Shown piece after piece: positions 27,212-43,965 of a DNA stretch of 64,000 nt (positions are counted from its first letter, which is position 1; every line of letters begins with the position of its first letter). The notes under the pieces were generated by a model, which saw only the letters and a list, made by a program, of their open reading frames with translations, was not told where the DNA came from and made no database searches. The translations under genes and the position numbers were made by a program. This stretch comes from Candidatus Eiseniibacteriota bacterium (GTDB taxonomy: Bacteria; Eisenbacteria; RBG-16-71-46; SZUA-252): positions 12,290-76,289 of the forward strand of contig QJVW01000115.1 of NCBI GenBank assembly GCA_003235575.1. Direction: 5' to 3'.

Positions 27212-29623
27212 ATGGGCGTCATGGACGAAGGAATCCTTCGGGAGTTCCTTGCCGAGAGCCTGGAAGGGCTGGGGCAAGTGGAGCGCGATTTGGTTGCGCT
27301 CGAACGCGATCCCGGCGACGTCGCCAAGATCGGCGGCGTCTTTCGCGTGTTCCACACGATCAAGGGAACGTGCGGATTCTTCGGCTTCACGAAACTCGCC
27401 GCGGTAACGCACGCCGGCGAGAGCCTCCTGAGCCGGCTTCGTGGCGGCGAGCGGGCGCTCTCGCCGGAGATCGTGAACGCCCTCCTCGCTTTGGTCGACA
27501 CGGTCCGAGCCATTCTCGGCAGGATCGAATCGTCGAAGGAAGAAGGAGAGGGCAATTTCGCCCGCCTCATCCAAAGGCTCAACCGCCTGGAGGAGGAAGG
27601 CGCCACCGAAGCACCACCGGCCGCTACGGAACCGCCGCCCGCGCCGACGGCTGCGGGCGCCGCGACGGAGCCGCCCGCTCCCGAAGCGGACACGGCGGTC
27701 ATCCCGCGTGACGGCGGGCTCTTCGGACCCCTCATCGCGAGCGGAAGACTCGACCCCGAAGCGGTCGCGATCGCCGCGCAGCAGCAGCGGCTGGGCGACC
27801 CCCGGCGTCTGGGCGAGATCTTGGTGGACCATGGCGCGCTGCAACCCCAGGACATCCTGGACGCGCTCCTCGTGCGGAGCGAAATGGCGGCCAGCACCCT
27901 CGCGGAGTCGAGCATCCGGGTCGACGTTCACCTCCTGGATCTCCTGATGAACCTTGTGGGCGAACTGGTTCTCGCCCGCAACCAGCTGCTTCAAAACGTC
28001 GCCTCGCAGGATCACGCGGATCTACCCGGAACGGTGCAGCGGTTGAATCACATCACGACCGAGCTGCAGGAGCGGATCATGAAGACCCGCATGCAGCCGA
28101 TCGGCAACGTATGCAACAAGCTCCCGCGCTTGGTGCGCGACATCGCGTCCGCCTGCGGGAAGCAGGTCCGGCTGGAGCTGGAGGGGGTCGATACCGAACT
28201 GGACCGCACGATCATCGAGGCGATTCGCGATCCGTTGACGCACCTCATCCGCAACGCCATCGACCACGGCATCGAGACGACGGAAGCGCGCGTCGCGAAC
28301 GGCAAATCGCCCGAAGGTCTGCTCGTGGTTCGCGCCTTCCACGAAGGCGGGAAGGTGCACCTCGAGGTCGAGGACGACGGCGCGGGGCTGTCCCTCGAGT
28401 CCATTCGCGAACGGGCGCTCCGCCAGAACCTCATTCCGGCGGACCGCGCGGCGCGCATGACGGAGCGCGACTGGTACAACGTGATCTTCCTGCCCGGGTT
28501 CACGACCGCCGCGCGCGTGACGAACGTCTCCGGGCGCGGCGTGGGCATGGACGTGGTGAAGACGAACGTCGAGCGGATCGGCGGCGCGATCGACGTCGAC
28601 TCGAGGCCCGGACACGGCACCACGATGCGGATTCGGATTCCCCTCACGCTCGCCATCGTGCCCGCGCTCGTTATCTCGGTGGACGGCGAGCGCTACGCCA
28701 TTCCGCAGGTGAACCTGATCGAGTTGGTCCGCGTGGAGCGCGCCGAGGCGTCCACGCGCCTTGTGACCGCGTACGACGTGCCGGTGCTTCGCTACCGCGA
28801 GCGGCTCCTTCCCCTGCTCGACCTCCGAGCCATTCTCGGCACCGCGCCGACGCCCGCGCGCGCGGATGGCCCGGAGGGTGACGCGATCTCGATCGTCGTG
28901 CTCCACGCCGACGGTCTCACGGTCGGCCTCGTCGTGGACACCATCGAAGCGTCGCAGGAGATCGTGGTGAAGCCACTGGGCGAGCCGCTTCGCCAAATTC
29001 CCGTGTTCGCGGGCGCGACCATCCTCGGCGACGGCGCGGTCGCGCTCATCCTCGACGTCCCCGGGCTGGCCCGCCACGCCAGGATCTCCCGCTCGGACGG
29101 CGAGATCGAGGAGAGCGCGCCGGCGGAGAACGTGGACCGCGGCGCCATGGATCGCCAGACCCTGGTGGTGTGCACGGTCGGCCCGCGCTGGACCGTCGCG
29201 ATCCCGCAGACGCAGATCGCGCGGCTGGAGGAATTCCGCCGGGCGGACGTGGAGCGGTCGGGCGATCGCGCCATCATCCAGTACCGGGGCGGTCTTCTCC
29301 CGCTCGTGTCCCTTGGCGCGCTGCTCGATCTGGGCGGAACGCACGCGGCGACCGACATCGAGTGGATCGGCGACGCCGACCCCCTCCGCGTGGTGGTTCA
29401 CGAGCGCGAGGGACGCGCCGTCGGTCTGATCGTGGAGGCCGTCGTGGAGATCGTCGAAGAGCGCGTGGCGCCGGGAGGCGGCGACGCATCCACCGGGTTC
29501 GCCGGCGCGGTGGTGGTGCGCGGATCGGTCACGGAATTGATCGACCTCGAAGGGTTGCTGCGGCAGGCGGACGTTCATCGCCACAGCGCGCTGGCGGCGT
29601 CGGCGGAAGGGGGCGCCCGATGA
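27212..29623 (+). CDS. cheA: Chemotaxis histidine kinase CheA with two C-terminal CheW-like (P5) domains
   Basis: P1/Hpt FRVFHTIKGTCGFFGF; P3 dimerisation VDVHLLDLLMNLVGELVLARNQL; P4 N-box HLIRNAIDHGIE, G1 VEDDGAGL, G2 GRGVGMDVV, then GTTMRIRIPLTLAI; CheW domain 1 (ISIVVLHADGLTVGLVVD...) and CheW domain 2 (QTLVVCTVGPRWTVAIP...LIVEAVVEIVE). Confidence 0.95.
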   Translation: MGVMDEGILREFLAESLEGLGQVERDLVALERDPGDVAKIGGVFRVFHTIKGTCGFFGFTKLAAVTHAGESLLSRLRGGERALSPEIVNALLALVDTVRAILGRIESSKEEGEGNFARLIQRLNRLEEEGATEAPPAATEPPPAPTAAGAATEPPAPEADTAVIPRDGGLFGPLIASGRLDPEAVAIAAQQQRLGDPRRLGEILVDHGALQPQDILDALLVRSEMAASTLAESSIRVDVHLLDLLMNLVGELVLARNQLLQNVASQDHADLPGTVQRLNHITTELQERIMKTRMQPIGNVCNKLPRLVRDIASACGKQVRLELEGVDTELDRTIIEAIRDPLTHLIRNAIDHGIETTEARVANGKSPEGLLVVRAFHEGGKVHLEVEDDGAGLSLESIRERALRQNLIPADRAARMTERDWYNVIFLPGFTTAARVTNVSGRGVGMDVVKTNVERIGGAIDVDSRPGHGTTMRIRIPLTLAIVPALVISVDGERYAIPQVNLIELVRVERAEASTRLVTAYDVPVLRYRERLLPLLDLRAILGTAPTPARADGPEGDAISIVVLHADGLTVGLVVDTIEASQEIVVKPLGEPLRQIPVFAGATILGDGAVALILDVPGLARHARISRSDGEIEESAPAENVDRGAMDRQTLVVCTVGPRWTVAIPQTQIARLEEFRRADVERSGDRAIIQYRGGLLPLVSLGALLDLGGTHAATDIEWIGDADPLRVVVHEREGRAVGLIVEAVVEIVEERVAPGGGDASTGFAGAVVVRGSVTELIDLEGLLRQADVHRHSALAASAEGGAR

Positions 29624-30057
29624 GCGAGGAACGCGTGCTGTGCACGTTCCGCGTCGCCGAGCATCTCCTCGGGCTCGACATTTCCGTCATCCAGGAGGTG
29701 TTGCGCCAGCAGGAGATCACGAGGCTTCCGCTCGCGGCGCCCGCGGTGCGCGGCGTCATCAATCTGCGCGGGCGGATCGTGCCCGCCCTCGATCTCCGAC
29801 GCTGCCTCGATCTCCCCGTCGCCGAGGGGGGGCGTCACGACGCGAACATCGTGGCGCGCGAACGGGAGGATGCGCCCGTGAGCCTGCTCGTGGACGAAAT
29901 CGGGGACGTCGTCACGGTGCCCCTGGAGTTGTGCGAAGGAGCTCCGGAAACCATGCGCGCCGCGGCGCGCGAGTTGATCCGCGGGGTGTTTCCCGTTCAC
30001 GACCGGCTGCTTCTCGAACTGGACCTGGGAAAGGTCCTGCGGGTGGCCTACGCCTAG
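29620..30057 (+). CDS. cheW: Chemotaxis coupling protein CheW (the ATG overlaps the cheA stop: ATGA)
   Basis: 145 aa [60 protein letters not shown]. The track ORF 29170 reads through from inside cheA. Confidence 0.9.
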
Positions 30058-30106
30058 ACACCGGGAGGCCCGGCACGGCCGGCCGTCACGGAAGGAGCGA
30101 ACTGTC

Positions 30107-31858
30107 ATGGTTCTCACGATTCGTCGCCAACTGGTCGGGAGCGCGCTCTTGGCGCTTCTGGGGTTCGTCATCTTCGGCGTCGTGGCCTGGTTCACGCTGA
30201 ACGAACTCAAGGTCAACGGCCCGCGTTACCACCGCATCGTCCAGGGCAAGGACCTGGTGGCCGACACCGTGCCGCAATCGGCCACCTTGATCGAGTCCTA
30301 CCTGGGCGTCCACCAGATGCTCGGCGAGACCGACCGGCGACGGCTGGACGACCTGATCCGCGAAAGCCAGCAGCTCCGCGTGCAATTCGAGGAGCGTCAC
30401 CAGCACTGGGAGCAAACGCTTCCCCCGGGCCCCCTGCGCCAGGCGCTCCACGAGCGCGCCTATCCCCCCGCGGCGGAGTTCCTGCGGGTGCGCGACGACG
30501 CGTTCATTCCCGCGGTGCGCGGAGGCGACGAGGAAACGGCGCGGCAGATCGCGGAAGGCGTTCTCAAACCGCTGTACGAGCAGCACATGAAGGCCGTCAT
30601 GGAAGTCGTGCAGCTGGCGACCACGCAGACGGAGCACGAGGAGGCCGAGGCGCTGGCGATCGCCCAGCAGCGGTCCACCCTGGTCCCGCTGGTCGGCCTG
30701 CTCCTGGCGGCGATCACGCTCGCCATCGGGCTGATCCTCTCTCGTCGGATCGTGCGCGCCATCGAGCAGATGCGCCGGGTCGCGGAGCGGACCGCCCGCG
30801 GGGACCTCACGTCCCGCGTCCAGTACACGGCGAAGGACGAGCTCGGAGACCTGGCCGCGTCGACGAACGAAATGGTCGAGTCGCTGCGCGAGGTGCTGTC
30901 GCACATCGGCGAGCGCTCGGTGACGCTGGCCACCGCCTCGGAGGAACTCTCCACCGTCTCCACGCAAATGATCGGAAGCGCCGAGGAAACGTCGCGCCAG
31001 GCGAGCACGGCCTCGGCCGGATCGGAGCAGGTGAGCCGCAGCGTGGAGAGCGTCTCGGCGTCCGTGGAGGAGATGATCGCGAGCATTCAGGAGATCTCCA
31101 AGAACACCAGCGAGGCGGCGCGCGTCGCCACGGTGGCTTCGGGAGAGGCGGACGTCACGAACGCCGCCGTGAACAAGCTCGGCACCAGCAGCGCGGAGAT
31201 CGGCAAGGTGGTGCAGGTCATCAACACCATCGCCCAGCAGACCAACCTCCTGGCGCTGAATGCGACGATCGAGGCCGCCCGCGCGGGCGAGGCCGGAAAG
31301 GGATTCGCGGTGGTCGCCAACGAGGTGAAGGAACTCGCCAACGAGACCGCGACCGCGACGAAGGACATCGGCCGGAAGATCGAGGCCATTCAGGCGGACA
31401 CGACGGACGCGATTCAGGCCATCGGGAAGATCAGCGAGACGATTCAGCAGATCACGGATATCTCCAACTCCATCGCGACCGCGCTGGAACAACAGCTTTC
31501 CACGTCGGGTGAGATCGGCCGGAACCTCGCCGAGGCGGCCCGCGGGAGCGCCGAGATCAGCGGCGGCATCGTGGCGGTCGCCGAGATCGCCCGGGATACC
31601 GCCGGCAGCAGCGAAAGCACGCAGAAGGCGGCGGAGGAACTGGCGCGGTTGGCAGCGGAGCTCCGCGGACTCACGCAGCGGTTTCACTACGCCGAACAGG
31701 GCGTCGACGCGCCGGTCCCCGAGGGGCCGTTCGCGGCGACCACGCCGGGCACGGTGGTGGCCTGGGATGCCGGCCGGGCGGCGGCGCAGCGACCTACGAA
31801 CGAGCGGGACGAGAGACGTCGCGCCGAGGACCGGGACACGCTGGCGGATGCCGGTTGA
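30107..31858 (+). CDS. Methyl-accepting chemotaxis protein (2 TM, roughly 150 aa periplasmic four-helix-bundle-like sensor, HAMP, MCP signalling domain)
   Basis: TM1 [19 protein letters not shown]; TM2 [17 protein letters not shown]; HAMP; highly conserved tip [33 protein letters not shown]. Confidence 0.93.
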
Positions 31859-31918
31859 TCTGACGTCCCGACGAAGCGCGCCGGCGCCGGCCGCCGGAGC
31901 ACGCGGAAGAGGAGGAGC

Positions 31919-32305
31919 ATGATGAAGGCCATGGTGGTAGACGACTCGAGCGCGATGCGCGCGATTCTCACGAAGCAGCTCCGGGAACTGGGCTTCGACG
32001 TCGTGCAGGCGTCGAACGGACAGGAGGCGCTTCGCCTGCTTCACGAAGATGGCGTCGTGGATCTCGTCCTCCTCGATTGGAACATGCCGGGGATGGACGG
32101 GGCCGAAGTGCTGTCGCTGTTTCGCTCCGAGCCCGCCTACCGCGAGATGCGGGTGATGATGGTGACGACGGAGAGCGAGATGTCGCAGGTGACGGTGGCG
32201 TTGGAGGCGGGGGCGAACGAATACCTCATGAAGCCGTTCGACCGCGAGTCCCTCGTCGAGAAGCTCATCCTGCTCGGGATGGATCCGAGCGGCCACACCG
32301 TTTAG
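31919..32305 (+). CDS. cheY: Chemotaxis response regulator CheY
   Basis: 128 aa MMKAMVVDDSSAMRAILTKQL...DLVLLDWNMPGMDG...VMMVTTESE...EYLMKPF; single REC domain. Confidence 0.9.
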   Translation: MMKAMVVDDSSAMRAILTKQLRELGFDVVQASNGQEALRLLHEDGVVDLVLLDWNMPGMDGAEVLSLFRSEPAYREMRVMMVTTESEMSQVTVALEAGANEYLMKPFDRESLVEKLILLGMDPSGHTV

Positions 32306-32315
32306 CGAGGGGCGC

Positions 32316-33395
32316 ATGGGCCGGATTCGAATTTTGGTCGTGGACGACGTCGCGATCGTTCGGCGTTTGGTCGTGAACGCGTTGGCGGTGGACGCGGACA
32401 TTCAGGTCGTCGGGACCGCGGCGAACGGCCGCGAGGCGCTGGCGAAGATTCCCCAGGTCCGCCCCGACTTGATCATTCTGGACTACGAGATGCCGGAGAT
32501 GGACGGCCTCGAGACGCTGAAGGAAGTGCGGCGACTGCACCCCGGCATTCGCGTCATCTTCTTCTCCTCGTACACGCGCCAGGGGGCGAAGGTCTCGCTG
32601 GAGGCGCTCTGGCAGGGAGCCGATGACTACGCCGCGAAGGTCACCGCCGACAATCTCGCGGCGGCGACGCTTTGCGTTCAAAACGACCTGTTGCCGAAGA
32701 TCCGAGCCCTCTGCGCACGCATCACGCGCGACGCGCCGGGCCTTCCTGCGGCGCCCGCGCCGGTGGTGGAAGCCGGCGGCGCGCCCTCCCACGCTCCCGC
32801 CGAAATCGTGGCGATCGGCGCCTCCACGGGCGGACCGCGCGCGCTCTCGGCGGTGATCGAGTCGTTGCCGAACGATTTCGCCCTGCCCATTCTCGTCGTG
32901 CAGCACATGCCGCCGTTGTTCACGCGGTCGTTGGCCGAGCGGCTGGCTTCCCGTTCGACGTTTCGCTGCATCGAGGCGGTCGACGGGTGCGTGGTCGAAC
33001 GGGGCACGATCCTGATCGCACCGGGCGACTGGCACCTGGTGGCGGTCCGGGAGGGAGACGTGGTCCGCGCGCACCTGACGGCGGATCCCCCCGAGAATTC
33101 GTGCCGGCCGGCTGTCGATCCGCTCTTCCGCTCGGTGGCCGAGGCCTACGGCGCCGGGGCGATGGGCATCCTCCTGACCGGCATGGGTCAGGACGGGCTG
33201 GCGGGGGCGCGTCGCATCCGCGAGCGGGGCGGCTCCGTGCTGGCGCAGGACGAGGCGAGCAGCGTGGTCTGGGGGATGCCGGGCGCCGTCGCGCGCGCCG
33301 GGCTCGCGAACAAGATCGTGCCGCTTCCGGAAATGGCGAGCGAGATTCTCAAACTCTCGAAGGCGGCGGGGCGCAATCGCGCCGCGGTTTCGTGA
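32316..33395 (+). CDS. cheB: Chemotaxis protein-glutamate methylesterase CheB (REC plus methylesterase)
   Basis: REC: RILVVDDVAIVRRL...DLIILDYEMPEMDG. CheB catalytic domain: IVAIGASTGGPRAL...VVQHMPPLFTRSLAERL...GMGQDGLAG. Confidence 0.95.
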   Translation: MGRIRILVVDDVAIVRRLVVNALAVDADIQVVGTAANGREALAKIPQVRPDLIILDYEMPEMDGLETLKEVRRLHPGIRVIFFSSYTRQGAKVSLEALWQGADDYAAKVTADNLAAATLCVQNDLLPKIRALCARITRDAPGLPAAPAPVVEAGGAPSHAPAEIVAIGASTGGPRALSAVIESLPNDFALPILVVQHMPPLFTRSLAERLASRSTFRCIEAVDGCVVERGTILIAPGDWHLVAVREGDVVRAHLTADPPENSCRPAVDPLFRSVAEAYGAGAMGILLTGMGQDGLAGARRIRERGGSVLAQDEASSVVWGMPGAVARAGLANKIVPLPEMASEILKLSKAAGRNRAAVS

Positions 33396-34279
33396 CCGAC
33401 CAAAGCACGGGACCCCGCGCCGGCGCCGTCGTGCCGCGACCAGACGCGCCCGGAGTCGATCCGGCCGGCTATGCCTACCTGCAGCGGCTGATGCTGGAGG
33501 AGACCGGGACCATTCTCGAGCCGGGCAAGGAGTACCTCGTCGAAGCGCGGCTCCATGCGTTGGCGCAGCGGGAGGGCTGTGCCTCGGCATCGGCCCTTCT
33601 CGAAGCGCTCCAGACGGAGGAGATTCCGGGACGCCTCCATCGATGGGTGATCGAGGCGATGCTGAACGGTGAGACCTCGTTCTTCCGGGATCACTATCCG
33701 TTCGAGGCCTTGCGAACATCCATCCTTCCGGAATTGATGGGACGACGCGCCGCGGTCAAGACGCTCCACGTCTGGAGCGCGGCGACGGCCAGCGGCCAGG
33801 AGGCGTACAGCCTGGCGATGTTGATCCTCGAGTCCGCGCCCGCCTTCCAGGATTGGCGGATCCGGATCCTCGCCACCGACGTCTCGGAATCGATGCTCGA
33901 ACGCGCCCGGGCGGGCGTGTACCGGCAAATCGAAGTGAATCGGGGGCTTCCCGCCCCCTGCCTCGTGAAGTATTTCGAGCGGTCCGGCCAGGACTGGAAG
34001 GTGAAGGAGCACGTGCGCTCGATGGTCGAATTCGACCACGTCAACCTGGCGCGACCCTGGCCGGCGCTTCCCCAGCTGGACGTGATTTTTCTTCGGAACG
34101 TGCTCCTGTACTTCAGTTCACAAGCCCGCAGGACGATCTTAGAGGGTGTCACGCGACATCTCCGCCCCGACGGGTACCTGTTCCTGGGGGGCGGAGAAAC
34201 GGTTCTCGCTCTCGACCGTACGTACGAATCCATCCGGGTCGGCAAGGCGGTCTGCTTTCGCCGCAAGGCGGCGGTTTGA
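33392..34279 (+). CDS. cheR: Chemotaxis protein methyltransferase CheR (the GTG start overlaps the cheB stop)
   Basis: TSFFRDHYPFEAL...LHVWSAATASGQEAYSLAML...IRILATDVSESMLERARAGVY...DVIFLRNVLLYFS; SAM-dependent methyltransferase CheR motifs. Confidence 0.92.
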   Translation: MTDQSTGPRAGAVVPRPDAPGVDPAGYAYLQRLMLEETGTILEPGKEYLVEARLHALAQREGCASASALLEALQTEEIPGRLHRWVIEAMLNGETSFFRDHYPFEALRTSILPELMGRRAAVKTLHVWSAATASGQEAYSLAMLILESAPAFQDWRIRILATDVSESMLERARAGVYRQIEVNRGLPAPCLVKYFERSGQDWKVKEHVRSMVEFDHVNLARPWPALPQLDVIFLRNVLLYFSSQARRTILEGVTRHLRPDGYLFLGGGETVLALDRTYESIRVGKAVCFRRKAAV

Positions 34280-34310
34280 GCCGGAATCGCAGGACCGACG
34301 AGGGAAACCC

Positions 34311-34793
34311 ATGAGCACGGCGACCATCGATCTTCAGGAATGGCTGACCTGCCTCACCGATGTGGCGAACGATTTGGCCACGAACCATCTCCGGTTCGAG
34401 AGCAGCACGGAACAGGCCGACGCCACGATCGGGGCCGGCGTTCATCCGGCCGTCTACGTCGCCATTCTCGGCTCGCGAAACAGCATGCACCTGGGTCTCT
34501 CCGCCACCACGGCGGGATGTCATGCGCTGGCGCGCGCCTTTCTCGGCCTGCGCGGACGCGAGGATCTCACGGAGCGGGAAGTCATCGACGGGATGAGCGA
34601 GATCCTGAACATCCTGGCGGGCAAGGTGAAGTCCCGCATGTCGACGCGCGATGGATCCCTGAAGCTGGGGCTTCCGATGTTCGTGGCCGGCACCGTCGGG
34701 CACGGCGAGGGCGTCGAGAGGGCGGATCACGAGGTGTTCCTGGGACCGGTCCCGTGCCGGCTCCACGTCTTCCGGCAGAGCCGATCGGTGTAA
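34311..34793 (+). CDS. cheX: CheX/CheC-family chemotaxis phosphatase (CheY-P phosphatase)
   Basis: 160 aa; MSEILNILAGKVKSRM is the characteristic CheX motif and AVYVAILGS...MHLGLS fits the fold. The real ATG is internal to track ORF 34146. Confidence 0.7.
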   Translation: MSTATIDLQEWLTCLTDVANDLATNHLRFESSTEQADATIGAGVHPAVYVAILGSRNSMHLGLSATTAGCHALARAFLGLRGREDLTEREVIDGMSEILNILAGKVKSRMSTRDGSLKLGLPMFVAGTVGHGEGVERADHEVFLGPVPCRLHVFRQSRSV

Positions 34794-34807
34794 GGGGGCC
34801 TACGGTC

Positions 34808-36202
34808 ATGAATCGTCGATCACCAATGTTCACGCGACGCGCGATCCTCTTGATCCCCTTCCTCGCGGCGTTGGTGTTCGCGGTCCCCGCAGCCGACCGG
34901 GCGGACGCAAGCCGGGGGCGGAGCAACCTGGTCCTCGCGGGCGGCGTTCCCGGGGAAACCTTCGGATGCTCCGTGGCCTCCGCGGGCGACGTCAACGGCG
35001 ACGGGTATGTGGACGTCATCGTAGGCGCCTACCAGAGCGGAACCGCCGGGAGCCCAACCGGTCGCGCCTACATCTATTACGGCGGTCCCGGCGCCGACGA
35101 GCGGGCGGACGTGATCCTGACGGGAGAAGCCGCCGGGGACGCGTTCGGCGTCAGCGTGGCCGGCGCGGGCGACGTGAACCGGGACGGCTATGCCGACGTC
35201 ATCGTCGGCGCCTATGAGAACGACGGTCGCGGCGCGAACGCCGGCCGCGCGTACATCTATTTCGGCGGACCGAAGATGGATGCCAGCGCCGACGTCGTCC
35301 TGAACGGCGAAGCGGCGGGCGACGCATTCGGGTATTCCGTGGCGGGCGCGGGCGACGTGAACCGTGACGGCTATGCCGACGTTCTGGTGGGAGCGTACGA
35401 GAACAGCGCCGCCGGCCCCGGCGCCGGGCGCGCGTATCTGTACCACGGCGGGCCGAAGCCCGACGCGGTGGCCGACGTGATCCTCACCGGTGAAGCCGCG
35501 GGAGACCGTTTCGGCATCTCGGTGGCGGGCGCGGGCGACGTGAACGGCGATGGATTCGCCGATGTCGTCGTCGGCGCCTACCAGAACGACGCCGGGGGCC
35601 GGGATGCCGGGCGCGCCTACGTGTACTACGGCGCCCCGCGCCTGGGCATGCGACCGAACGCCGTCTTGACGGGATCCGCGGAGGGCGACGCCTTCGGCTT
35701 CGCCGTCGCGGGCGCCGGAGACGTCAACAAGGATGGGTTCGCGGACGTGATCGTCGGCGCCTACCACAACGACGCCGGCGGAAAGGACGCCGGAAGGGCG
35801 TTCGTCTACTTCGGGGGCGCGAACTTCTCGACGAAGGCTGACGCCGTTCTGACCGGCGAGGGCGCGGGCGATGCCTTCGGATACGCCGTCGGCGCCGCCG
35901 GCGACGTGAACGCCGACGGCTACGCCGACCTCTTGGTCGGCGCGTATGGAAACGACGCGGGCGGGTCCGCCGCGGGCCGGGCCTACGTGTTCTACGGGGG
36001 CACGACGCCCCACCTGACCTCCGACTTCAGCCTCACCGGTGGATCGACCCTCGACAACCTCGGCTTCGCGGTCGCGGGATCCGCCGACCTGAACGGCGAC
36101 GGCTACGCGGATATCGTCGTCGGGGCGCCCTACAGCGACTCGGGGCGCGCGCACGTCATCACGACGGTGGGCGCGAACTCCCGCCCCGTCGCCTCGCGCT
36201 AG
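34808..36202 (+). CDS. Secreted FG-GAP repeat (integrin-alpha-like beta-propeller) protein with seven or more repeats
   Basis: Signal peptide MNRRSPMFTRRAILLIPFLAALVFAVPAADRADA. Roughly 60-aa repeats of F/YG.SVA.AGDVNGDGYADVIVGAY...GRAYVYYGG, the FG-GAP/Ca-binding D-x-N-x-D-G signature. It is the last gene of the che operon. Confidence 0.9.
   Translation: MNRRSPMFTRRAILLIPFLAALVFAVPAADRADASRGRSNLVLAGGVPGETFGCSVASAGDVNGDGYVDVIVGAYQSGTAGSPTGRAYIYYGGPGADERADVILTGEAAGDAFGVSVAGAGDVNRDGYADVIVGAYENDGRGANAGRAYIYFGGPKMDASADVVLNGEAAGDAFGYSVAGAGDVNRDGYADVLVGAYENSAAGPGAGRAYLYHGGPKPDAVADVILTGEAAGDRFGISVAGAGDVNGDGFADVVVGAYQNDAGGRDAGRAYVYYGAPRLGMRPNAVLTGSAEGDAFGFAVAGAGDVNKDGFADVIVGAYHNDAGGKDAGRAFVYFGGANFSTKADAVLTGEGAGDAFGYAVGAAGDVNADGYADLLVGAYGNDAGGSAAGRAYVFYGGTTPHLTSDFSLTGGSTLDNLGFAVAGSADLNGDGYADIVVGAPYSDSGRAHVITTVGANSRPVASR
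34930..36190 (+). repeat. Roughly 180-bp periodic coding tandem repeats (FG-GAP units) within the preceding CDS
   Basis: The repeated nucleotide blocks ggcgcgggcgacgtgaac(c/g)g(c/t)gacggctatgccgacgt recur about every 180 bp. Confidence 0.7.
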
Positions 36203-36292: not shown

Positions 36293-37966
36293 CTAGGACG
36301 TGTGCCCGGCTTCCTCGGGGTCAGCCGCTGTGCGCGGGGGCGCCCAGGGCGCCGTGTTCTTCACGACGGGGATGGTGCCTTTGTTGAGGGCTTCCACGAA
36401 CACGGAGACGACTTCCGGCGCGAACTGGGTTCCCGCCTTCTCGGTCATCTGCGCCACCGCCTGTTCCATGGTGAGCCCGGCGCGATAGGGGCGATCCGTG
36501 GTCATGGCGTCGAATGCATCCGCGACGTTCACGATCTTCGCCGCGAGCGTCATCTCCTCGCCCGTCAACCCATCGGGGTATCCCTTTCCGTCCACCCGCT
36601 CATGGTGGTGACGGATCATGTCGATGCAGCGCTCCAGGAAGCGGACGCCGCGGACCATCTCGGCGCCGCGGACGGGATGCATCTTGACCATCCTCCACTC
36701 CTCGTCGGTCAGCGCACCCGGCTTGTGGAGGACCTTGTCCTCGGTGTGTACCTTTCCGATGTCATGCAGGAAGGCGCCGAATTGGATCCGCTGCACCTCC
36801 TCGGGGTCGAACTCCAGCGCCCGCGCGATGCCCACCGAATAGGCCGCGACGCGCTCGGTATGGCCGTGCGTGTACGGATCCTTCTCTTCGATCCGGGAGA
36901 CGAGCAGCCGGACGGTGGAGACGTAGGCCTCCTGGAGATCCTTGAATAGCCGCGCGTTCTCGATGGCGATGCCGGCCGATTCCGAGAGCGCACGAAGCAT
37001 TTCCAGGTCCGCCGCCTGGAACTCCTGGCCGCTGACCTTCTCCCCGATCGCCAGGACGGCGACCAGCCGGTTCTTCATGATGACCGGCGAGACCAGCGTC
37101 AATCCCGCCGCGTAGAGCTGCCCCACCTCGCGCTCGAACCCGCGGTGGTGCTCCACGGAGGCGAGTCGCACCGGGCGCGGGTCCTCGCTCCCGGGTGCGT
37201 GGAGGGAACGAATGAATTCTCCGTTGTAGTCGAGCACGATCGAGCGCGCCTGCTCCTCCTTCATGCCCTTGAAATTGGAGGCGTCCAGGCGCGTCGGGCT
37301 CTCCCGGTCGTCGGTGAGGAAAAGACAGGCGGCGTTGACGCGCAGCTGGCCCATCACGCTGAGGATCAGCGTTCCCAAGAGGCCTTCGAGATCAAGCGAC
37401 GCGTTGAGCTGGTGCGTCAAGCCCATCAGCGTCTCGAGGCTGTAGACCTGGAACCGAAGCTCCTTGTTCCGGACCAGCAGATCCTCGCGGTTTCGCTGCA
37501 CCTCGGATTCCAGCTCCTGGTTCTTTCCCGCCAGGGCGTCGTGCCGCTCCAGCCGCTCGAAGATGCGACGGACCTTGATGAGCAGTTCCTTGGGAGAGAA
37601 CGGCTTCGTCAGGTAGTCGTCCGCGCCGTGCATCAGCCCCTGCAGCCGCGAGTCGACCTCCGCGCTGGCGGACACCATCACGATCGGGATATGCGCGGTG
37701 TCGCGCGTACTCTTCATCGCGGCGCACACTTCGAATCCCGTCTTCTTCGGCAGACGCAGGTCCAGGATCACGAGATGCGGCGGGGTGCGGCGCACGATCT
37801 CCAGCGCATCCTCCCCCGACATCGCGGTCAGGACGCGGTATCCGTTCTGGGTCAGCGAGATCTGAAGCAGCTCGACAACGCGGCGATCGTCGTCCACGAC
37901 GAGGATGGTCCGCTTTCCTTTCGCAGGACCGGCTTCGGTGGCCGGCCGGAGGCTTTCGGTGCTCAC
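36293..37966 (-). CDS. Response regulator REC-(coiled coil)-GAF-HD-GYP (c-di-GMP phosphodiesterase-type output)
   Basis: REC: TILVVDDDRRVVELLQ...HLVILDLRLPKKTGFEVCAAMK...DDYLTKPF. GAF-like middle region. HD-GYP: FLHDIGKVH ... IRHHHERVDGKGYPDGLTGEEMTLAAKIVNVADAFDAMT. Confidence 0.9.
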   Translation of the reverse strand: MSTESLRPATEAGPAKGKRTILVVDDDRRVVELLQISLTQNGYRVLTAMSGEDALEIVRRTPPHLVILDLRLPKKTGFEVCAAMKSTRDTAHIPIVMVSASAEVDSRLQGLMHGADDYLTKPFSPKELLIKVRRIFERLERHDALAGKNQELESEVQRNREDLLVRNKELRFQVYSLETLMGLTHQLNASLDLEGLLGTLILSVMGQLRVNAACLFLTDDRESPTRLDASNFKGMKEEQARSIVLDYNGEFIRSLHAPGSEDPRPVRLASVEHHRGFEREVGQLYAAGLTLVSPVIMKNRLVAVLAIGEKVSGQEFQAADLEMLRALSESAGIAIENARLFKDLQEAYVSTVRLLVSRIEEKDPYTHGHTERVAAYSVGIARALEFDPEEVQRIQFGAFLHDIGKVHTEDKVLHKPGALTDEEWRMVKMHPVRGAEMVRGVRFLERCIDMIRHHHERVDGKGYPDGLTGEEMTLAAKIVNVADAFDAMTTDRPYRAGLTMEQAVAQMTEKAGTQFAPEVVSVFVEALNKGTIPVVKNTAPWAPPRTAADPEEAGHTS

Positions 37967-39666
37967 GAGTTGGTCTCCATGGAAACGGACGTATGGTTTC
38001 CGGTCGCGTCGCGCGCGCCGGCGTGCTGGTCGGAATCGCGGGTCTCGGCGGCGTGACCGCCGTCCGGAATGGTCGCGCCGGCGCCCAGGGGGTCGAGCAC
38101 GGCCCGATCCACGGCATGACCGGAGGCGCGCTCGGCGGCGGCGGCCGACGCCTGTTCGGCCCGGAGGCGGGAACGGCGCTCGGTCTTCTCCAGCACGCCC
38201 AGGAACACCTCCACCATCGAGGGATCGAACGGGGCGCCCCAGTTTTCCGAGATGACCTGTCGCGCCTTGTCGCGCGGCAGGGCCCGCCGATAGGGCCGTT
38301 CGCTGGTCATCGCGACGTACGCGTCGACCAGGGAGACGATGCGGGCGCCGAGGGGAATGTCCTGCCCCTTCAGGCCCGACGGATAGCCCTCGCCGCCCCA
38401 GCGCTCATGGTGATTGCGCACGACCTCCACGACCTCGGGCGAGAAGTCCATCTCCTCGAGGATCTGCGCACCACGCGCCGGATGTTGCTTGATCAGCGAC
38501 CACTCCTCCGCGGAGAGATGCGCCGGATTCTTGAGGATGAGATGACTGACCGCCAGCATGCCGATGTCGCGGAGTGCCGCCCCGTAGATCAACGCCTTCA
38601 CGTCGGCGCGGGGCACTTGGAGGAGCCGCGCCATGGCGGTGACCAGGCGCACCACGCGCTCGGTGGATCCCTTCGCATACACGTCGCGGCTTTCGATGAG
38701 GGACATCATGCCCCGCACCACGCCCAGATTTCGATCTTCCATCTGGCGATGGAACCGGGCATTGGCGATCGCGACGGCGGCCTGGTGCGCCAGAATCGTG
38801 AGCAGGTCCCGCTCGTCCTCCTGGAAACCGCGGTCTCCGCCGCGCGCGCCCAGGAAGAGCATGCCGATCAGTTCGCGACGCACCCACAAGGCGACGCCCC
38901 ATTCGAGTCCGGAGGCGCGGAGCGTGCGCGCGGCGCCCGCGGCGTCGGGGAGCGCCTCGGCTCCGACCATCGGCTCCGCGGCCGCCGTGGGCGCCAGCGC
39001 CAGGGCGTCCTCGAGGGTCGTGAACGTGTCGGCCTCCGCCATGGCCGCGATCGAAGCCGCCGACAGTTTCGTGTCGCGGAATTGGTCCCGCGCGAATCCA
39101 CGAACCTGGCGGGGGATGAGAACGCCCTCGCGGTCCGGGTCGTCGAGAAAGAGCGCCAGGCGCTCGACGCCGAATTGGCCCATGACCGAGAGCCCGAAGA
39201 GGTTGAGCACCTCATCCAGATCGTGGGCGAGGTTCAGCGCCTGCGTGATCTCGAAGAGATTTCTGAACTCGACGATCTTCAGGCGCAGCTTGGTTTGCAG
39301 CGCGGCGTGCTCCGCCACGCTCGGCCCGCCGGGCGGAACCGACGCTTCCTCCGTGGGGGAGTTCGAGGCGTAGATCTGCGCGCCCGATTCGAGGAGCGCC
39401 TCGCGGACGCCGCCGCGAATCCCCCGGACGATGATCCGCCGGGCCGCGCCTTCGTAGGCGCGCGCTTGCCGCTGGATCACGGACACGGCGAGCGCGGAGA
39501 CGTCGCTGACCTCGTCGAAGTCGAGGTGCACTTCCCGCGCGTCCCGGGCCAGACATTGAACCAGGAGTTGATCGAGCGCGCGTGCGCCCGCGGCGTCGAC
39601 GACCCCCCGGAGCGAGAACCGGAACTCGTCGCGCGGTTCGCCGCGGACGAGGTGAAGGCCCTTCAA
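37963..39666 (-). CDS. STAS (anti-sigma-antagonist-like)-GAF-HD-GYP protein; probable TTG start overlapping the upstream stop (TTGA)
   Basis: STAS: LKGLHLVRGEPRDEFRFSLRGVVDAAGARALDQLLVQCLA...EVHLDFDEVSDVSALAVSVI...RIIVRGIRGGVREALLESG. GAF region. HD-GYP: AALRDIGMLAV ... VRNHHERWGGEGYPSGLKGQDIPLGARIVSLVDAYVAMT. The track ORF extends to 40500 through roughly 270 aa of Arg/Gly-rich sequence that overlaps the upstream gene and is implausible. Confidence 0.75.
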   Translation of the reverse strand: MKGLHLVRGEPRDEFRFSLRGVVDAAGARALDQLLVQCLARDAREVHLDFDEVSDVSALAVSVIQRQARAYEGAARRIIVRGIRGGVREALLESGAQIYASNSPTEEASVPPGGPSVAEHAALQTKLRLKIVEFRNLFEITQALNLAHDLDEVLNLFGLSVMGQFGVERLALFLDDPDREGVLIPRQVRGFARDQFRDTKLSAASIAAMAEADTFTTLEDALALAPTAAAEPMVGAEALPDAAGAARTLRASGLEWGVALWVRRELIGMLFLGARGGDRGFQEDERDLLTILAHQAAVAIANARFHRQMEDRNLGVVRGMMSLIESRDVYAKGSTERVVRLVTAMARLLQVPRADVKALIYGAALRDIGMLAVSHLILKNPAHLSAEEWSLIKQHPARGAQILEEMDFSPEVVEVVRNHHERWGGEGYPSGLKGQDIPLGARIVSLVDAYVAMTSERPYRRALPRDKARQVISENWGAPFDPSMVEVFLGVLEKTERRSRLRAEQASAAAAERASGHAVDRAVLDPLGAGATIPDGGHAAETRDSDQHAGARDATGNHTSVSMETNS

Positions 39667-41369
39667 GCGTCCGCTCCTGCCGCCGGCGCGGCGGCGCCGA
39701 TGGCGTCCGGCGTTCCCAGGAGGCGGAGACGGCGCATGACGGCCGCCGGGTGGAGCACCAGCGTCACTTGGTTGTCGACCCCCACGATACCGCCCAGAAC
39801 CTCCTCGACCGGGTAGAGCCGCGGTGGAAGGGGGGAGAGCCGCGCATTCTCGCGCCAGACGATACGGTCGAAGCCCACCGCGCCGGTCTCCTTGCCGGAG
39901 CGAAGGATCGCCAGCGGGCCGTCGGCCGGTTGCGGCGGCGAATCGTCCGCCTGCCCCGGACCGAACAGCGACGCGAGGGGCACGACCCTGGCGCCACCTC
40001 CCCCTCCCGACCAGACCAACTCCTCGCGGGAAGCGTGGATTCGTTCGATGGCGCTCCACGGGAGCGCGATCCGCTGTCCCGAGACTTCGACGATGAGAAA
40101 ACCCCGCAGCGAACGCGCCATGGGAAACTGCATGTGCACGACCGAGGTCCCGGGCTTCCCGCCCTGATGCGTGACGAAGCCGCCTAGCTCTTCGAGCGCG
40201 GATTCCAGCCGCGCGATGGATTCCGAATCGAAGGCGACGCGGCCCTCGATCGCCAACCTCGCCTCCAAGCCCTCGCGCGCGGCGGTGACGCGAAGCTGGC
40301 GCGACGTCTCCCCTTCCGGAGATTCGGCCGTTTCCAGAACGCGATAGATCGACGGCAGGAGCATCGATCCGATTTCGGGCTCGAAGCCGACGCCGCCCGT
40401 GTGCACCGTCAGGACGCTTCGCCGCTCCGCCGTGTCGCGGCGGGCCGCGGCGGCGTAGATCTCGTCCACGAATCGGTCCAGCGGATCCAGGAATTCCCAC
40501 AGCAGGTGTTCATCCAAGTCGCGCGCCCGACGTTCCAGCGAGTACTGAACGCCCAGCAGTTGATGGATGTCGTGGGACAGCGAACGCATCCCGGTCGCGA
40601 CCTCCTCCAGGGTCTGATGCACCTCGATGGCCCGGGCCGTGACGTTTTGGCGGCGCGCGGGCGACGGTTCCGCCGGACCGCGACCGCTCGACGCAGTCTC
40701 GCCGGGAGCCAGACGGTCGGGATCGATGGCCTTCATGAACTGGTCCCACTCCGCCAGCACCCGCTGGACGGATCGGAGCATCGCGCCCAACCCCTCGCTG
40801 ATCGAGCCCATGCGGTCGTTCTGGCTGACGAGCGAGGACTTGATCTCAAAGGTCAGCGCGAGCAGGTTCTCCCGCGGCGCCATGTCCGGCGTCGCCTCGT
40901 CGATCACCCCGCGCGACGCGTTCAGCGCCTGCGCCTTCGCGCGGCTCAGCGAGGAACGCAGGTTGTCGATGGCGTCCCCGACGGAGGAAGCGTGGGCGAG
41001 CAGGGCGGCGAAGCCTTCGGTTCGCAATTGCTGCGCCAGGCGATCCTGCGCCTCGAGCGCCACGCGGCAATGCGCCACCAGCGTCTCGCGCTCCTCGGGG
41101 CGCACGTTGCCGAGCCGCACGAGGCTCTCCTGCAGCTCGCGCGCCAGGGACGCCACGCTCCCGATATCGAGCCAATCCGCGCTTCGCTCCACGAGCCGCA
41201 CGGAGAGTTCGACGATGGGGCCGAGTTCGTGCGATCCGAGATCGGGCTCCTCCGTGTCGAGGAAGGTGCGCACGATGTCGATCTCCTCGCGCATGAGCGC
41301 GCTGAACGTCGCGCTCAACCGAGACATGATTTGCTCGTTGCTGAGGTGTTCCGAAGCGGCGGTGCGCAT
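39663..41369 (-). CDS. CheA-like scaffold protein with degenerate Hpt and ATPase domains (no phospho-acceptor His, no N/G1/G2 boxes) and an intact C-terminal CheW-like domain
   Basis: The P1-like region ELSVRLVERSADWLDIGSVASLAREL aligns with FRVFHTIKGTCGFFGF of the canonical cheA in this window but has E/R where the His should be. The P4-like EFLDPLDRFVDEIYAAAARR lacks the N-box Asn/His, and SVLTVHTGGVGF replaces the DxGxG motif. ...GTSVVHMQFPMARSLRGFLIVEV then the CheW domain (IALPWSAIERI...GPLAILRSGKETGAVGFDRIV). Confidence 0.75.
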   Translation of the reverse strand: MRTAASEHLSNEQIMSRLSATFSALMREEIDIVRTFLDTEEPDLGSHELGPIVELSVRLVERSADWLDIGSVASLARELQESLVRLGNVRPEERETLVAHCRVALEAQDRLAQQLRTEGFAALLAHASSVGDAIDNLRSSLSRAKAQALNASRGVIDEATPDMAPRENLLALTFEIKSSLVSQNDRMGSISEGLGAMLRSVQRVLAEWDQFMKAIDPDRLAPGETASSGRGPAEPSPARRQNVTARAIEVHQTLEEVATGMRSLSHDIHQLLGVQYSLERRARDLDEHLLWEFLDPLDRFVDEIYAAAARRDTAERRSVLTVHTGGVGFEPEIGSMLLPSIYRVLETAESPEGETSRQLRVTAAREGLEARLAIEGRVAFDSESIARLESALEELGGFVTHQGGKPGTSVVHMQFPMARSLRGFLIVEVSGQRIALPWSAIERIHASREELVWSGGGGGARVVPLASLFGPGQADDSPPQPADGPLAILRSGKETGAVGFDRIVWRENARLSPLPPRLYPVEEVLGGIVGVDNQVTLVLHPAAVMRRLRLLGTPDAIGAAAPAAGADA

Positions 41370-41392
41370 GGAGTCGGCTCCCTTCGGCGTGC

Positions 41393-42922
41393 CTACCTGG
41401 GTCCGCCCGGCTGAATTCCCTCGAGCCAGTCGGGGATCTTTGGTTCGATCGGCGCCGTCGACGGGGTCTCGCCCTCCGGCTCGGCCGCGGCCGCGGGCGC
41501 GTCGTTCGCTTCCGGCACCGCGTCGTGAAGCGACGCGGGATCGACGGGGCGCGGCTCCACGTGATCTTTGGGCCCCGCCGGCGTGACGGGTTCGAACGGA
41601 TCGTCGAACGAAGCGTCCGCCGAGGGCGCCTCCGCCGGGGGCTCGAAGCGGCTCACCTCGTCCTCTACGGGAACGCCGTCCGCCGCGGCGCCGTCGGCCG
41701 GGCCTTCCGTGATCGCGGCGTCGTGGTTCTCGTCGATTTCGATCGCACTCATCCGTGACGGTTCGCTCTCCTCGACCCCGACGGGTTCGGCCACCGTCGG
41801 CGGCATCGCCGCTCCCTCTTCGAATTCTTCGATCGACGCACCGAGCCGCTCGCGCAACCCGCGGGTCCGCGCCACCAGCGATTCCAAGGACTCCAGCGCC
41901 GCCGGCGATACCGCCGGCGCGCCGACATCCGCATCGGTGCCGATCGACGCCACCGCGGCCTTCGCGTCCTCGCTGCTCGATTGAATGGAGGCGATGGTGT
42001 CGCCCACCTTGAATTCGATCTCGCTCGAGAGCCGGGAGATCGTGTCGGTGGCCTCGCGCGCGTACTCCGCGAGGCGACGCGTTTCCTCGGCGATCGACGC
42101 GAACGCCTCGCTGCCCGAGCGGGTGGCCTCGAGGGCCGCGTTCAGCGCCAGAAGCGTCGCGCGGTTGGTGACTTTCTCGGCCACGCCGGTCAGTTCGTTC
42201 GCGCGCATCAGCCCCGCGGCCAGATCCTCGATGCCGTCGGCGGCCGTGCGCACCAGCGCGTCGACCATCGCGGCGGGCGACCCGTTGCCGCCGTTCCCCG
42301 CCGGCGTGGAGCCCGACTGAAGCGTCCGCAGGACGGCGGCGAGATCGGTCTCGAGCGAGGCGAGCCCCTCGTCATAGGTCCGAAGCGTACCGACCGCCTT
42401 GCGCCCGACCTCGCGATCGTACGGCGCGGTGGGAGGAACGGCTTCGTCGGAGCCGATCAACTCATCGGCCGCGTACGCGGGACGCGGCTCATGAACCTCC
42501 GGCTCCGTTGGGGAGTCGTCCTGATCCCGGCGCACCTTCTCGAGCTCGAGGAGCGCCATCGCCGAGGCGCGTTGCGCGGCGGCGCTGGACGCGACCTCCC
42601 GGTAGAGCGACTGCCACGGTTCCGTGCGAAACGAGGCCGGCGGCTCGTTCGGCGCTTGGTCGGAAAGCGCGATGTCGAGTAGCGCGGACACCTTCGCGGC
42701 GGGCGCGCCCGCGGCCTGAGCGGCCAGCGCCGTGCAAATGCCGGCGCTGGCGAGGCCGACGACGACCCCGACGGCGACGCCAAGCGTTCCGCCGAGGCCG
42801 AACGCGGCTGCGGCAGCCGCGACGGCGCCGAGGAACGAGACGACGAACACGCCAGCGGACGGCTTGGCGGCGCCCTGCCTATCCGGCGTGTGCTTCCCCG
42901 ATTCGCGAGCGGCATCCGTCAT
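41393..42922 (-). CDS. Short membrane-anchored MCP-like protein (divergent MCP signalling tip, no HAMP, acidic/Pro-rich disordered C-terminal tail of about 200 aa)
   Basis: N-terminal hydrophobic segments VFVVSFLGAVAAAAAAFGLGGTLGVAVGVVVGLASAGICTALAA. MCP tip homolog ELTGVAEKVTNRATLLALNAALEATRSGSEAFASIAEETRRLAEYAREATDTISRLSSEI (compare [33 protein letters not shown] in the canonical MCP). The tail is rich in E/D/P/A. Confidence 0.7.
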   Translation of the reverse strand: MTDAARESGKHTPDRQGAAKPSAGVFVVSFLGAVAAAAAAFGLGGTLGVAVGVVVGLASAGICTALAAQAAGAPAAKVSALLDIALSDQAPNEPPASFRTEPWQSLYREVASSAAAQRASAMALLELEKVRRDQDDSPTEPEVHEPRPAYAADELIGSDEAVPPTAPYDREVGRKAVGTLRTYDEGLASLETDLAAVLRTLQSGSTPAGNGGNGSPAAMVDALVRTAADGIEDLAAGLMRANELTGVAEKVTNRATLLALNAALEATRSGSEAFASIAEETRRLAEYAREATDTISRLSSEIEFKVGDTIASIQSSSEDAKAAVASIGTDADVGAPAVSPAALESLESLVARTRGLRERLGASIEEFEEGAAMPPTVAEPVGVEESEPSRMSAIEIDENHDAAITEGPADGAAADGVPVEDEVSRFEPPAEAPSADASFDDPFEPVTPAGPKDHVEPRPVDPASLHDAVPEANDAPAAAAEPEGETPSTAPIEPKIPDWLEGIQPGGPR

Positions 42923-42938
42923 GACGTGCTCCCTTCCT

Positions 42939-43505: not shown

Positions 43506-43965
43506 GGAGCCACTCCGTCCTTTGAAGGCGAGCTGAAACCTGTACGAATGAAGAAAGGCAAGTAACATGCCACGAACGACTTCCGCCGAATCACGCTAAC
43601 CCTTTGCCGTGTAGCGGCTTCGTACTCATCCAATCGGCAGGTTCCCGGCGTTGTGGAGGGCTTTTGGTCAGCGGCCGCCGGGCGTGTTGCAATCCTGGCC
43701 GTATTCCGCAATCCCCCACCCATCCGGCGGTAAAACACACCCACCCAGAGGGCTAAATCCGACCAGAGGCTGGGCTGATCGAGCCCTTCGGCGCCGCCGC
43801 GGCGGCGAATCCACTTGCGACCATGTTGTTGTAAATAAATCGCTTACACGTCTGGAGCGACGTTTCCGGCGGCTCGGCACGCGGCGTGCAGTGGCAGGGA
43901 GTCGAAGGCCGCGGAGATCGGAAGCCGCGGCGAGGAGTGGACGGAAAAGAGAGGGGGGCAGGGAC

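Follow-up and report, generated by a model that had tools for sequence, protein, structure and literature searches.

An exported integrin-type FG-GAP propeller encoded at the end of a che operon in Candidatus Eiseniibacteriota, with a possible tie to chemosensing

Introduction

In most descriptions, a chemosensory gene cluster is a signalling kit confined to the cytoplasm and the membrane. In a 64,000-nucleotide stretch of DNA from Candidatus Eiseniibacteriota bacterium (contig QJVW01000115.1; this whole stretch is referred to below as the window), the last gene of a che operon encodes a predicted secreted beta-propeller composed of FG-GAP repeats. A conserved, translationally coupled, exported propeller of the integrin type inside a che cluster is undescribed in the literature that we searched, and the comparison with related loci reported here bears on whether the propeller is functionally tied to the signalling genes that precede it.

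Several described systems share some of these features. Periplasmic binding proteins act as indirect chemoreceptor ligands in Escherichia coli, as in the pairs MBP-Tar, RBP/GBP-Trg and DppA-Tap. Like these, the window propeller is a soluble exported protein that could feed the periplasmic domain of a methyl-accepting chemotaxis protein (MCP), and it is dispensable for the core pathway; it differs in being a beta-propeller where they have the Venus-flytrap fold, their genes lie in transport operons and not in che operons, and its interaction with an MCP is, unlike theirs, hypothetical. The matrix adhesins Bap1 and RbmC of Vibrio cholerae are Ca2+-dependent propellers that belong to a lifestyle regulated by cyclic di-GMP (c-di-GMP). 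The window protein is likewise comparable with PilY1 (PMC8833165), an extracytoplasmic Ca2+-dependent propeller tied to surface behaviour and to a c-di-GMP-regulated lifestyle. Unlike the window propeller, however, PilY1, Bap1 and RbmC have several domains and associate with pili or with matrix polysaccharide, their genes lying in the corresponding pilus or matrix loci, and no relationship of sequence or context between them and the window propeller was found.

The Wsp system of Pseudomonas (e.g. PMC9170161, PMC9758175) resembles the window cluster in joining an MCP-CheW-CheA-CheB-CheR core to a receiver-domain c-di-GMP enzyme; systems of this kind are linked to surface behaviour. The enzyme of the window is an HD-GYP phosphodiesterase and not a GGDEF cyclase, and its gene belongs to a separate, convergent operon with a CheW and an MCP of its own but without CheA; moreover, a single-domain CheY and a CheX are present here, whereas Wsp has no gene for an exported propeller.

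Bacterial integrin-type propellers with seven consecutive FG-GAP/Cage repeats were described by Chouhan et al. 2011 (PMC3192720), with a regular and compact Ca2+-binding loop in each repeat. The window protein, with DxNxDGxxD loops in all seven repeats and an exact period of 61 residues, is a new member of this known class of bacterial integrin-like FG-GAP propellers. That study is a survey of sequence motifs, without genomic context or functional assignment; the subfamily of the window, by contrast, is a stand-alone propeller of about 465 residues with a conserved C-terminal tail, located in a chemosensory cluster of relatives of Eisenbacteria.

Results

The FG-GAP gene and its product

The FG-GAP gene (34808-36202, forward strand) is an open reading frame of 464 codons without an internal stop. 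Its product matches the Pfam family FG-GAP (PF01839) in seven stretches, with an E-value of 1e-57 and 191.7 bits against a cut-off of 22.1, and FG-GAP_2 and FG-GAP_3 also match, overlapping PF01839. An earlier note, made from the sequence alone, had read the gene as a signal peptide followed by "seven or more" FG-GAP/Ca-binding repeats of roughly 60 residues, with a DNA periodicity of about 180 bp. The signal peptide, the FG-GAP assignment, the calcium loops and the periodicity all stand, with two refinements: there are exactly seven repeats of 61 residues each, and the DNA period given by Tandem Repeats Finder is exactly 183 nt, or 61 codons. The FG motif recurs at residues 52, 113, 174, 235, 296 and 357, with LG at residue 418 in the last unit, and the calcium-loop motif D-x-N-x-D-G-x-x-D is found in each of the seven blades, in every one of which a Ca2+ site is predicted. 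At the DNA level a repeat search identified six in-register copies at 183-nt spacing with mutual identities of 62-71%, and the longest exact repeat within the gene is 24 nt.

This organization is constant in the family. All 59 members of 435-480 residues have seven blades, and 53 of them carry seven Dx[DN]xDGxxD loops (five or six in the others). Blade-specific motifs are invariant through an alignment of 33 orthologous sequences, in which no blade-sized insertion or deletion occurs.

Structure prediction, which the earlier note had proposed as a check together with profile searches, agrees with the family assignment. An AlphaFold2 model built on the 33-sequence alignment has a mean predicted local distance difference test (pLDDT) score of 83.1 and a predicted template modelling (pTM) score of 0.85; its 28 strands form seven four-stranded blades, the signal peptide is modelled as a detached helix (residues 9-24), and the C-terminal tail is of low confidence (pLDDT 43-61). 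The modelled seven-bladed fold can be superimposed on integrin alpha heads, and the fold match is very strong. The protein is nonetheless not an integrin. Compared with the metazoan alpha heads (PDB 3V4P, alpha-4; 4WJK, alpha-5), it lacks thigh and calf domains, a transmembrane helix and a cytoplasmic motif, terminating 12 residues past blade 7, and it has seven Ca2+ loops as opposed to the three or four of integrins; no vWA or beta-subunit-like gene was found in the cluster with Pfam.

The N-terminus reads MNRRSPMFTRRAILLIPFLAALVFAVPAADRADA followed by SRG, the boundary being an A-x-A cleavage-type site, and the sole hydrophobic segment of the protein spans residues 6-32. Every orthologue has such a hydrophobic stretch and an A-x-A-like site, although the sequence is variable. 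The twin arginines of the window copy (TRRAIL) are not kept in the orthologues, so Tat export was rejected and Sec export assumed. Sorting as a lipoprotein, through the type IX secretion system (T9SS) or by PEP-CTERM was likewise rejected, neither motif nor domain being seen in the protein or in the orthologue alignment: the 33 sequences show no conserved cysteine at the end of the signal peptide, Pfam finds no Por_Secre_tail or other C-terminal domain in the protein, and there is no C-terminal transmembrane segment. In the tail, residues P460 and R464 are conserved in at least 90% of the 33 orthologues, and no known sorting motif was recognised there.

Public annotation of an identical protein (P0002, 458 residues) begins at Met7 (34826), which would put 32 nt between the gene and cheX; this is why an exact-sequence look-up of the 464-residue product returned no match. 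The start at 34808 is favoured because a Shine-Dalgarno-like sequence precedes it, and the signal peptide is retained with either start. Two further open frames accompany the gene: an antisense frame of 444 codons (34820-36154, reverse strand) spans the whole of it, and its own reading frame stays open for another 468 nt upstream, across cheX (34340-36202, forward strand). Both look like by-products of GC-rich repeats encoding Gly, Ala and Asp rather than genes, and gene callers could be misled by them.

The che operon and its junction with the FG-GAP gene

The operon runs in the order cheA-cheW-MCP-cheY-cheB-cheR-cheX-FG-GAP from 27212 to 36202, with all genes on the forward strand (Table 1), and the FG-GAP gene is terminal because the next gene is convergent. 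The placement given in the earlier note, at the end of a che operon and 14 nt beyond cheX, is thus borne out: cheX is identified by PF13690, its TAA stop ends at 34793, and a Shine-Dalgarno-like AAGGGGG lies nine nucleotides from the ATG at 34808. CheX orthologues are 48-85% identical. The operon MCP has transmembrane segments at residues 7-34 and 189-217, with a weak match to 4HB_MCP_1 (a four-helix-bundle sensor domain).

Between cheX and the FG-GAP gene a scan revealed no sigma-70-like promoter and no intrinsic-terminator-like site, which is weak evidence as the promoter types of the host are unknown. The spacing can be followed in relatives. The identical operon is present on three JGI soil contigs; the samples 3300022562, 3300015263 and 3300027985 carry the identical contig. 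In P0011, P0039 and P0047 (70-79% identity) the gene occupies the same position, independent gene calls placing it +10, +13 and -4 nt from cheX; public gene calls of the same spacing give 13, -4, 10, 8 and 9 nt. Among 22 loci with the gene order of the window, the start lies at -4 nt relative to the cheX stop in 13, at -1 in one, and at +8 to +14 in the rest, as measured with a script that takes whichever start codon comes first from the cheX stop onward and is biased to short gaps but agrees with the public calls. Four-base overlaps of the ATGA or GTGA kind are a classical sign of translational coupling. Since tight spacing or overlap recurs in about 20 related loci, co-transcription of the FG-GAP gene with cheX is strongly implied by the sequences. 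The gene is on the same strand as the che genes, with no intervening sites and with conserved tight spacing, as expected of a member of the operon; it is not present in all orthologous systems, as a core chemotaxis component would be.

The 90-nt spacer downstream of the FG-GAP gene contains an 8-bp GC hairpin. A terminator or structured RNA was considered here and rejected, the fold being no more stable than those of shuffled sequences (z 0.27). The only Rfam or ARAGORN match in the window is a tRNA-Met (CAT) at 47919-47993 on the forward strand.

Table 1. Coordinates of the che operon, its terminal FG-GAP gene and the facing operon in the window.
Feature	Coordinates	Strand	Basis or remarks
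ECF-type (extracytoplasmic function) sigma factor (~25040-25609) and zf-HC2 anti-sigma factor (~25606-27063)	25040-27063	+	directly upstream of cheA
cheA	27212-29623	+	Pfam Hpt/H-kinase_dim/HATPase_c/CheW
cheW	29620-30057	+	Pfam CheW
Transmembrane MCP, 4HB-like periplasmic domain	30107-31858	+	Pfam HAMP and MCPsignal
cheY	31919-32305	+	Pfam Response_reg
cheB	32316-33395	+	Pfam CheB_methylest
cheR	33392-34279	+	Pfam CheR
cheX, CheY-P phosphatase family	34311-34793	+	PF13690, E 9.3e-10, 38.9 bits (cut-off 27)
cheX/FG-GAP spacer, 14 nt, Shine-Dalgarno-like AAGGGGG	34794-34807	+	too short for promoter or terminator
FG-GAP / integrin-alpha-type seven-bladed beta-propeller gene	34808-36202	+	464 aa; alternative annotated start 34826
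Sec-type signal peptide, aa 1-34, predicted cleavage after A-D-A, without lipobox cysteine	34808-34909	+	hydrophobic segment
Seven 61-aa blades (aa 39-452)	34922-36163	+	DxNxDGxxD loops; 183-nt DNA period
Conserved, probably flexible C-terminal tail, end [RK]-P-[VI]-A-x-R-COOH	36164-36199	+	orthologue alignment
REC-GAF-HD-GYP (c-di-GMP phosphodiesterase type)	36293-37966	-	Pfam Response_reg, GAF, HD_5; convergent partner
STAS-GAF-(degenerate) HD-GYP	37963-39666	-	Pfam, motif check
568-aa protein without family assignment	39663-41369	-	conserved in convergent operon
Membrane-hairpin MCP	41393-42922	-	Pfam, transmembrane check, synteny
CheW of convergent operon	42939-43568	-	Pfam, synteny

Inversion and loss of the FG-GAP gene among relatives

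Related loci were collected by a CheX-alignment scan of metagenome contigs, an approach chosen to avoid anchoring on the FG-GAP gene itself, and were classified by tblastn. Of 37 loci, 18 have the arrangement of the window (A), with cheX followed by the FG-GAP gene on the same strand; six have the FG-GAP gene inverted (B), seven lack it (C), and six are too short to tell, so that the gene is at the junction of the two operons in 24 of 31 informative loci. P0078, P0088 and P0051 (62-66% identity) have arrangement B, as does the Eisenbacteria metagenome-assembled genome L004; the loci that show it include L092-L095, L004 and L119. In arrangement B the gene converges on cheX, and its first bases overlap the end of the REC-GAF-HD-GYP gene of the facing operon by 4 nt (or 1), start upon stop, which makes it still a promoterless terminal cistron of the same cluster. 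Because it is absent from seven of the 31 loci and on the other strand in six, the propeller gene is an optional accessory of the cluster and not a fixed part of it.

The order of these events was examined with a bootstrapped neighbour-joining tree of CheR and CheX and with a tree of the FG-GAP proteins; built from about 450 columns, these trees are a guide and do not settle the matter. In the CheR and CheX tree the A loci form a monophyletic clade with 100% bootstrap support. In its sister clade the basal lineages have arrangement B and those with arrangement C are nested within: L107 (C) groups with L092 and L094 (B) at 83%, L121 and L122 (C) group with L127 (B) at 100%, and L126 (C) stands separately. 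The tree of the FG-GAP proteins is congruent with that of CheR and CheX and places P0068 and P0100 outside both the A and the B clades; in the outgroup P0068/P0077 (L135, L136) cheX is again followed by the FG-GAP gene, with a gap of 8-9 nt. The most parsimonious account of these trees takes the order cheX, then FG-GAP, as ancestral, with a single inversion that carried the gene over to the last position of the convergent operon and, after it, at least two clean losses. Recent horizontal insertion of the gene was rejected, as its GC content at third codon positions equals that of the neighbouring genes and the two trees are congruent.

Two features of individual loci may be added. In L086 (11407-11416), L113 and L125 the FG-GAP gene and its convergent neighbour share 10-23 nt at their 3' ends, and in arrangement C the stops of cheX and the HD-GYP gene are 7-41 nt apart, so that there is almost no room for a terminator between the two operons. 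In the outgroup loci L135 (2201-3595) and L136 (2223-2303), cheX and the FG-GAP gene are followed in the same direction by an NtrC-type sigma-54 activator that bears a receiver domain, and no convergent HD-GYP operon is found there, which hints that the che module of that lineage is wired to a transcriptional output.

Specificity of the association and selection on the gene

A scan with the FG-GAP protein yielded hardly anything but unrelated FG-GAP proteins; the 79 other FG-GAP loci that it recovered in reference genomes (35-56% identity) served as a negative control and not as a source of orthologues. None of the 79 has cheA, cheR, cheX or an MCP gene within 10 kb. Homologues at 54-55% identity lie within arrays of FG-GAP paralogues with T9SS tails, in unrelated contexts, and the closest relatives without a che link carry Por_Secre_tail, FlgD_ig or dockerin modules. 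Together, the control loci and the context of these homologues indicate that the che link is specific to the subfamily of about 465 residues at 60% identity or above, and in the 12 contexts retrieved no orthologue of at least 60% identity was found outside the cluster. Every carrier of the che-linked propeller comes from a single candidate phylum, the relatives bearing the name Candidatus Eisenbacteria. These bacteria also have FG-GAP proteins of the surface type, since the 3.1-Mb contig of P0078 encodes a 721-residue FG-GAP paralogue (P0127) with a FlgD_ig-type C-terminal domain.

The ratio of non-synonymous to synonymous substitution rates (dN/dS) for the FG-GAP gene is 0.09-0.15, the same as for cheR, cheX and cheB in the same genome pairs, and the protein is 60-80% identical to its relatives, above CheX, CheA and CheR of the same loci. 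Purifying selection on the gene equals that on the che genes in strength, and the congruent trees and the equal GC content at third codon positions point to vertical inheritance together with them.

The facing operon and other features of the window

Convergent with the che operon is a second operon, likewise conserved in relatives (37963-43568 together with 36293-37966), which has its own CheW and MCP and no CheA. Its REC-GAF-HD-GYP protein has the canonical motifs LHDIG and HHERVDGKGYP. The STAS-GAF-HD-GYP protein has LRDIG in place of LHDIG and HHERWGGEGYP in place of HHExxDGxGYP; it is probably catalytically degenerate, to judge from these motifs, and may act as a c-di-GMP sensor. In the 568-residue protein Pfam gives a sub-threshold CheW-like match (residues 457-547, 17.5 bits), and there is no NCBIfam match. 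The simplest reading is that the two operons form one chemosensory system, the outputs of which would include c-di-GMP hydrolysis.

Upstream of cheA, Pfam matches zf-HC2 on the open reading frame at 25240-27063, genes called on the identical contig L001 match Sigma70_r2/r4_2 and zf-HC2, and the sigma/anti-sigma pair is also found upstream of cheA in L084, L086, L092, L094 and L095. Elsewhere in the window, two tandem proteins of about 950-990 residues (8973-14419, reverse strand) have the architecture HisKA-HATPase_c-GAF-HD-GYP, a histidine kinase fused to HD-GYP; counting the two in the che cluster, GAF-HD-GYP signalling proteins are unusually abundant in the window. In CheA, the linker that joins the Hpt domain to the dimerisation domain (27806-27880, forward strand; residues 199-223) contains RLGEILVDHGALQPQDILDALLVRS, which is near the c-di-GMP-binding MshEN motif RLGxxLLxxGLLxxxxLxxxLxxQ, the NCBIfam match (NF053729) scoring 23.8 bits, under the cut-off of 38. 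This segment is kept in seven of nine CheA orthologues and missing from two shorter ones. Through it, c-di-GMP may feed back on the kinase in a pathway that has HD-GYP outputs.

Discussion

A proposed role in chemosensory signalling

We tentatively favour the view that the propeller is an optional extracytoplasmic accessory functionally tied to the chemosensory/c-di-GMP system, while recognising that the balance tips slightly against it; the functional tie as such is inferred with moderate confidence. With no room for a promoter of its own, the FG-GAP gene would be transcribed as the last cistron of the chemosensory operon and, in most relatives, would be translationally coupled to the gene before it. 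That operon is one half of a conserved two-operon cluster, in which the ECF sigma/anti-sigma pair and cheA-W-MCP-Y-B-R-X face cheW-MCP, the gene without family assignment, STAS/GAF/HD-GYP and REC/GAF/HD-GYP, and the output of the cluster likely includes c-di-GMP hydrolysis. The propeller would be exported to the periplasm, unanchored and in amounts like those of the signalling proteins, where it would capture an external ligand (a glycan, a protein or a Ca2+-dependent cue) and pass it on to the four-helix-bundle domain that the operon MCP exposes in the periplasm.

Such an input role is favoured because the propeller would be made in stoichiometry with signalling proteins, because it has none of the adhesin-type sorting or anchoring modules of its relatives without a che link, because its sequence changes slowly, the surface signatures and the tail being conserved, and because the core pathway could go on working after the loss of an accessory input. 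The specific co-sensor mechanism is weakly held and on balance unlikely. Its most explicit form is a dedicated extracytoplasmic co-receptor, in which the Ca2+-loaded propeller captures a ligand derived from a surface or matrix and docks on the MCP, possibly through the conserved [RK]P[VI]AxR tail, with c-di-GMP hydrolysis as the output of the array; in that form it is distinctly improbable.

A number of observations weigh against a functional tie or against this mechanism. The absence of the gene from orthologous che operons, which the earlier note had named, beside a terminator or promoter between the two genes, as grounds for giving up its view, was found in part of the loci: although no terminator-like or promoter-like site separates the gene from cheX, arrangement C accounts for seven of the 31 informative loci (six with duplicates collapsed). 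In those loci the stops of cheX and the HD-GYP gene have come to lie close together and all other genes of the cluster are kept, and no FG-GAP remnant was detected at an E-value of 10 or below across the whole of the loci, including L126 with 10 kb on each side. In the CheR and CheX tree the absences fall in at least two independent places inside the inverted clade. Since the loss leaves the other genes in place, the chemosensory system evidently works without the propeller. The flanking housekeeping genes for ATP synthase and inosine monophosphate dehydrogenase (IMPDH) are likewise syntenic, so part of the conservation is phylogenetic inertia. The periplasmic domain of the MCP is 57-58% identical in lineages without the propeller and 58-60% in those that keep it; as the sensor domain is not more diverged after the loss, there is no sign of a lost binding partner, and the comparison does not support a co-receptor role, nor does it exclude one. 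The FG-GAP protein is a propeller and does not have the type I or II fold of periplasmic binding proteins, so that its fold is unrelated to those of the known co-sensors of this kind, and the analogy by which it would "work like" a binding-protein co-sensor of an MCP is drawn with low confidence. Full-text searches for FG-GAP together with chemotaxis, chemosensory or HD-GYP revealed no described link; the one co-mention, in a paper on the Myxococcus xanthus che3 system (PMC3147164), is of an incidental neighbouring open reading frame.

Alternative explanations

The strongest alternative is that the FG-GAP gene is a passenger, with a function unrelated to chemosensing; located where the two operons converge, it would owe its expression to read-through and its place to phylogenetic inertia. 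The two or more independent losses that leave the rest of the cluster unchanged speak for this, as do the flip of the gene between the two operons, the wider synteny that takes in ATP synthase and IMPDH, the unrelaxed sensor domain of the MCP after loss of the gene, and the confinement of carriers to one candidate phylum. Against it, the adjacency to cheX survives in an outgroup clade with a different downstream context, and after the inversion the start again overlaps the preceding stop, which argues for selection for coupled expression; nor would a passenger account readily for the lack of a che link at all 79 other FG-GAP loci or of close orthologues outside the cluster in the contexts retrieved. 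We regard this explanation as credible but doubtful.

An output role, with the propeller acting as a secreted adhesin or matrix protein that depends on Ca2+ and with attachment following chemosensory or c-di-GMP signalling, is unlikely, more so than the passenger explanation. FG-GAP and integrin-type propellers are typically extracellular ligand-binding or adhesion modules, and the match to integrin alpha heads is very strong; the cluster encodes two HD-GYP proteins, the FG-GAP gene of the sister clade is translationally coupled to the REC-GAF-HD-GYP gene, and the closest relatives without a che link are T9SS-tailed surface proteins. The protein itself, however, carries no additional domain for anchoring, sorting or polymer binding and lacks a secretion tail at its C-terminus, and the position of last coupled cistron behind low-abundance cytoplasmic signalling enzymes is an odd one for a matrix protein. 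Membership of the operon means co-expression with the sensors and not the state of a regulated target downstream of the output, and the conservation of the protein (60-80% identity, dN/dS about 0.1), at invariant length, is unlike that of most adhesins. The suggestion of the earlier note that the gene could link chemosensing to surface attachment therefore keeps circumstantial support, from the HD-GYP partner operon and the coupling in the sister clade, and loses ground on the missing anchoring or sorting domain.

That the gene is a contingency locus, with repeats gained and lost through the 183-bp tandem periodicity and surface proteins varying in consequence, can be dismissed in spite of the perfect 183-nt register of six to seven units, for the repeat-number variation that the earlier note had raised is ruled out by the divergence of the units at the DNA level, by the short longest exact repeat and by the constant seven blades of all 59 members, with an invariant signature in each blade and no blade-sized insertion or deletion, and a closed seven-bladed propeller is known to be intolerant of the gain or loss of a unit.

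Significance

The interest of the association is bounded by its confinement to one uncultured phylum and by the dispensability of the gene. Within that phylum the locus is an example of a promoterless terminal gene that moves between operons, always as the last cistron, with one flip and several clean losses. Should the propeller feed the pathway or be controlled by it, it would be a new kind of extracellular input or effector for Che-type systems, and it would give a concrete function to the widespread and functionally obscure bacterial integrin-like propellers. If it were a co-receptor, the cluster would be a bacterial "integrin-to-second-messenger" outside-in module, and the propeller would represent a new structural class of indirect chemoreceptor ligand-binding protein.

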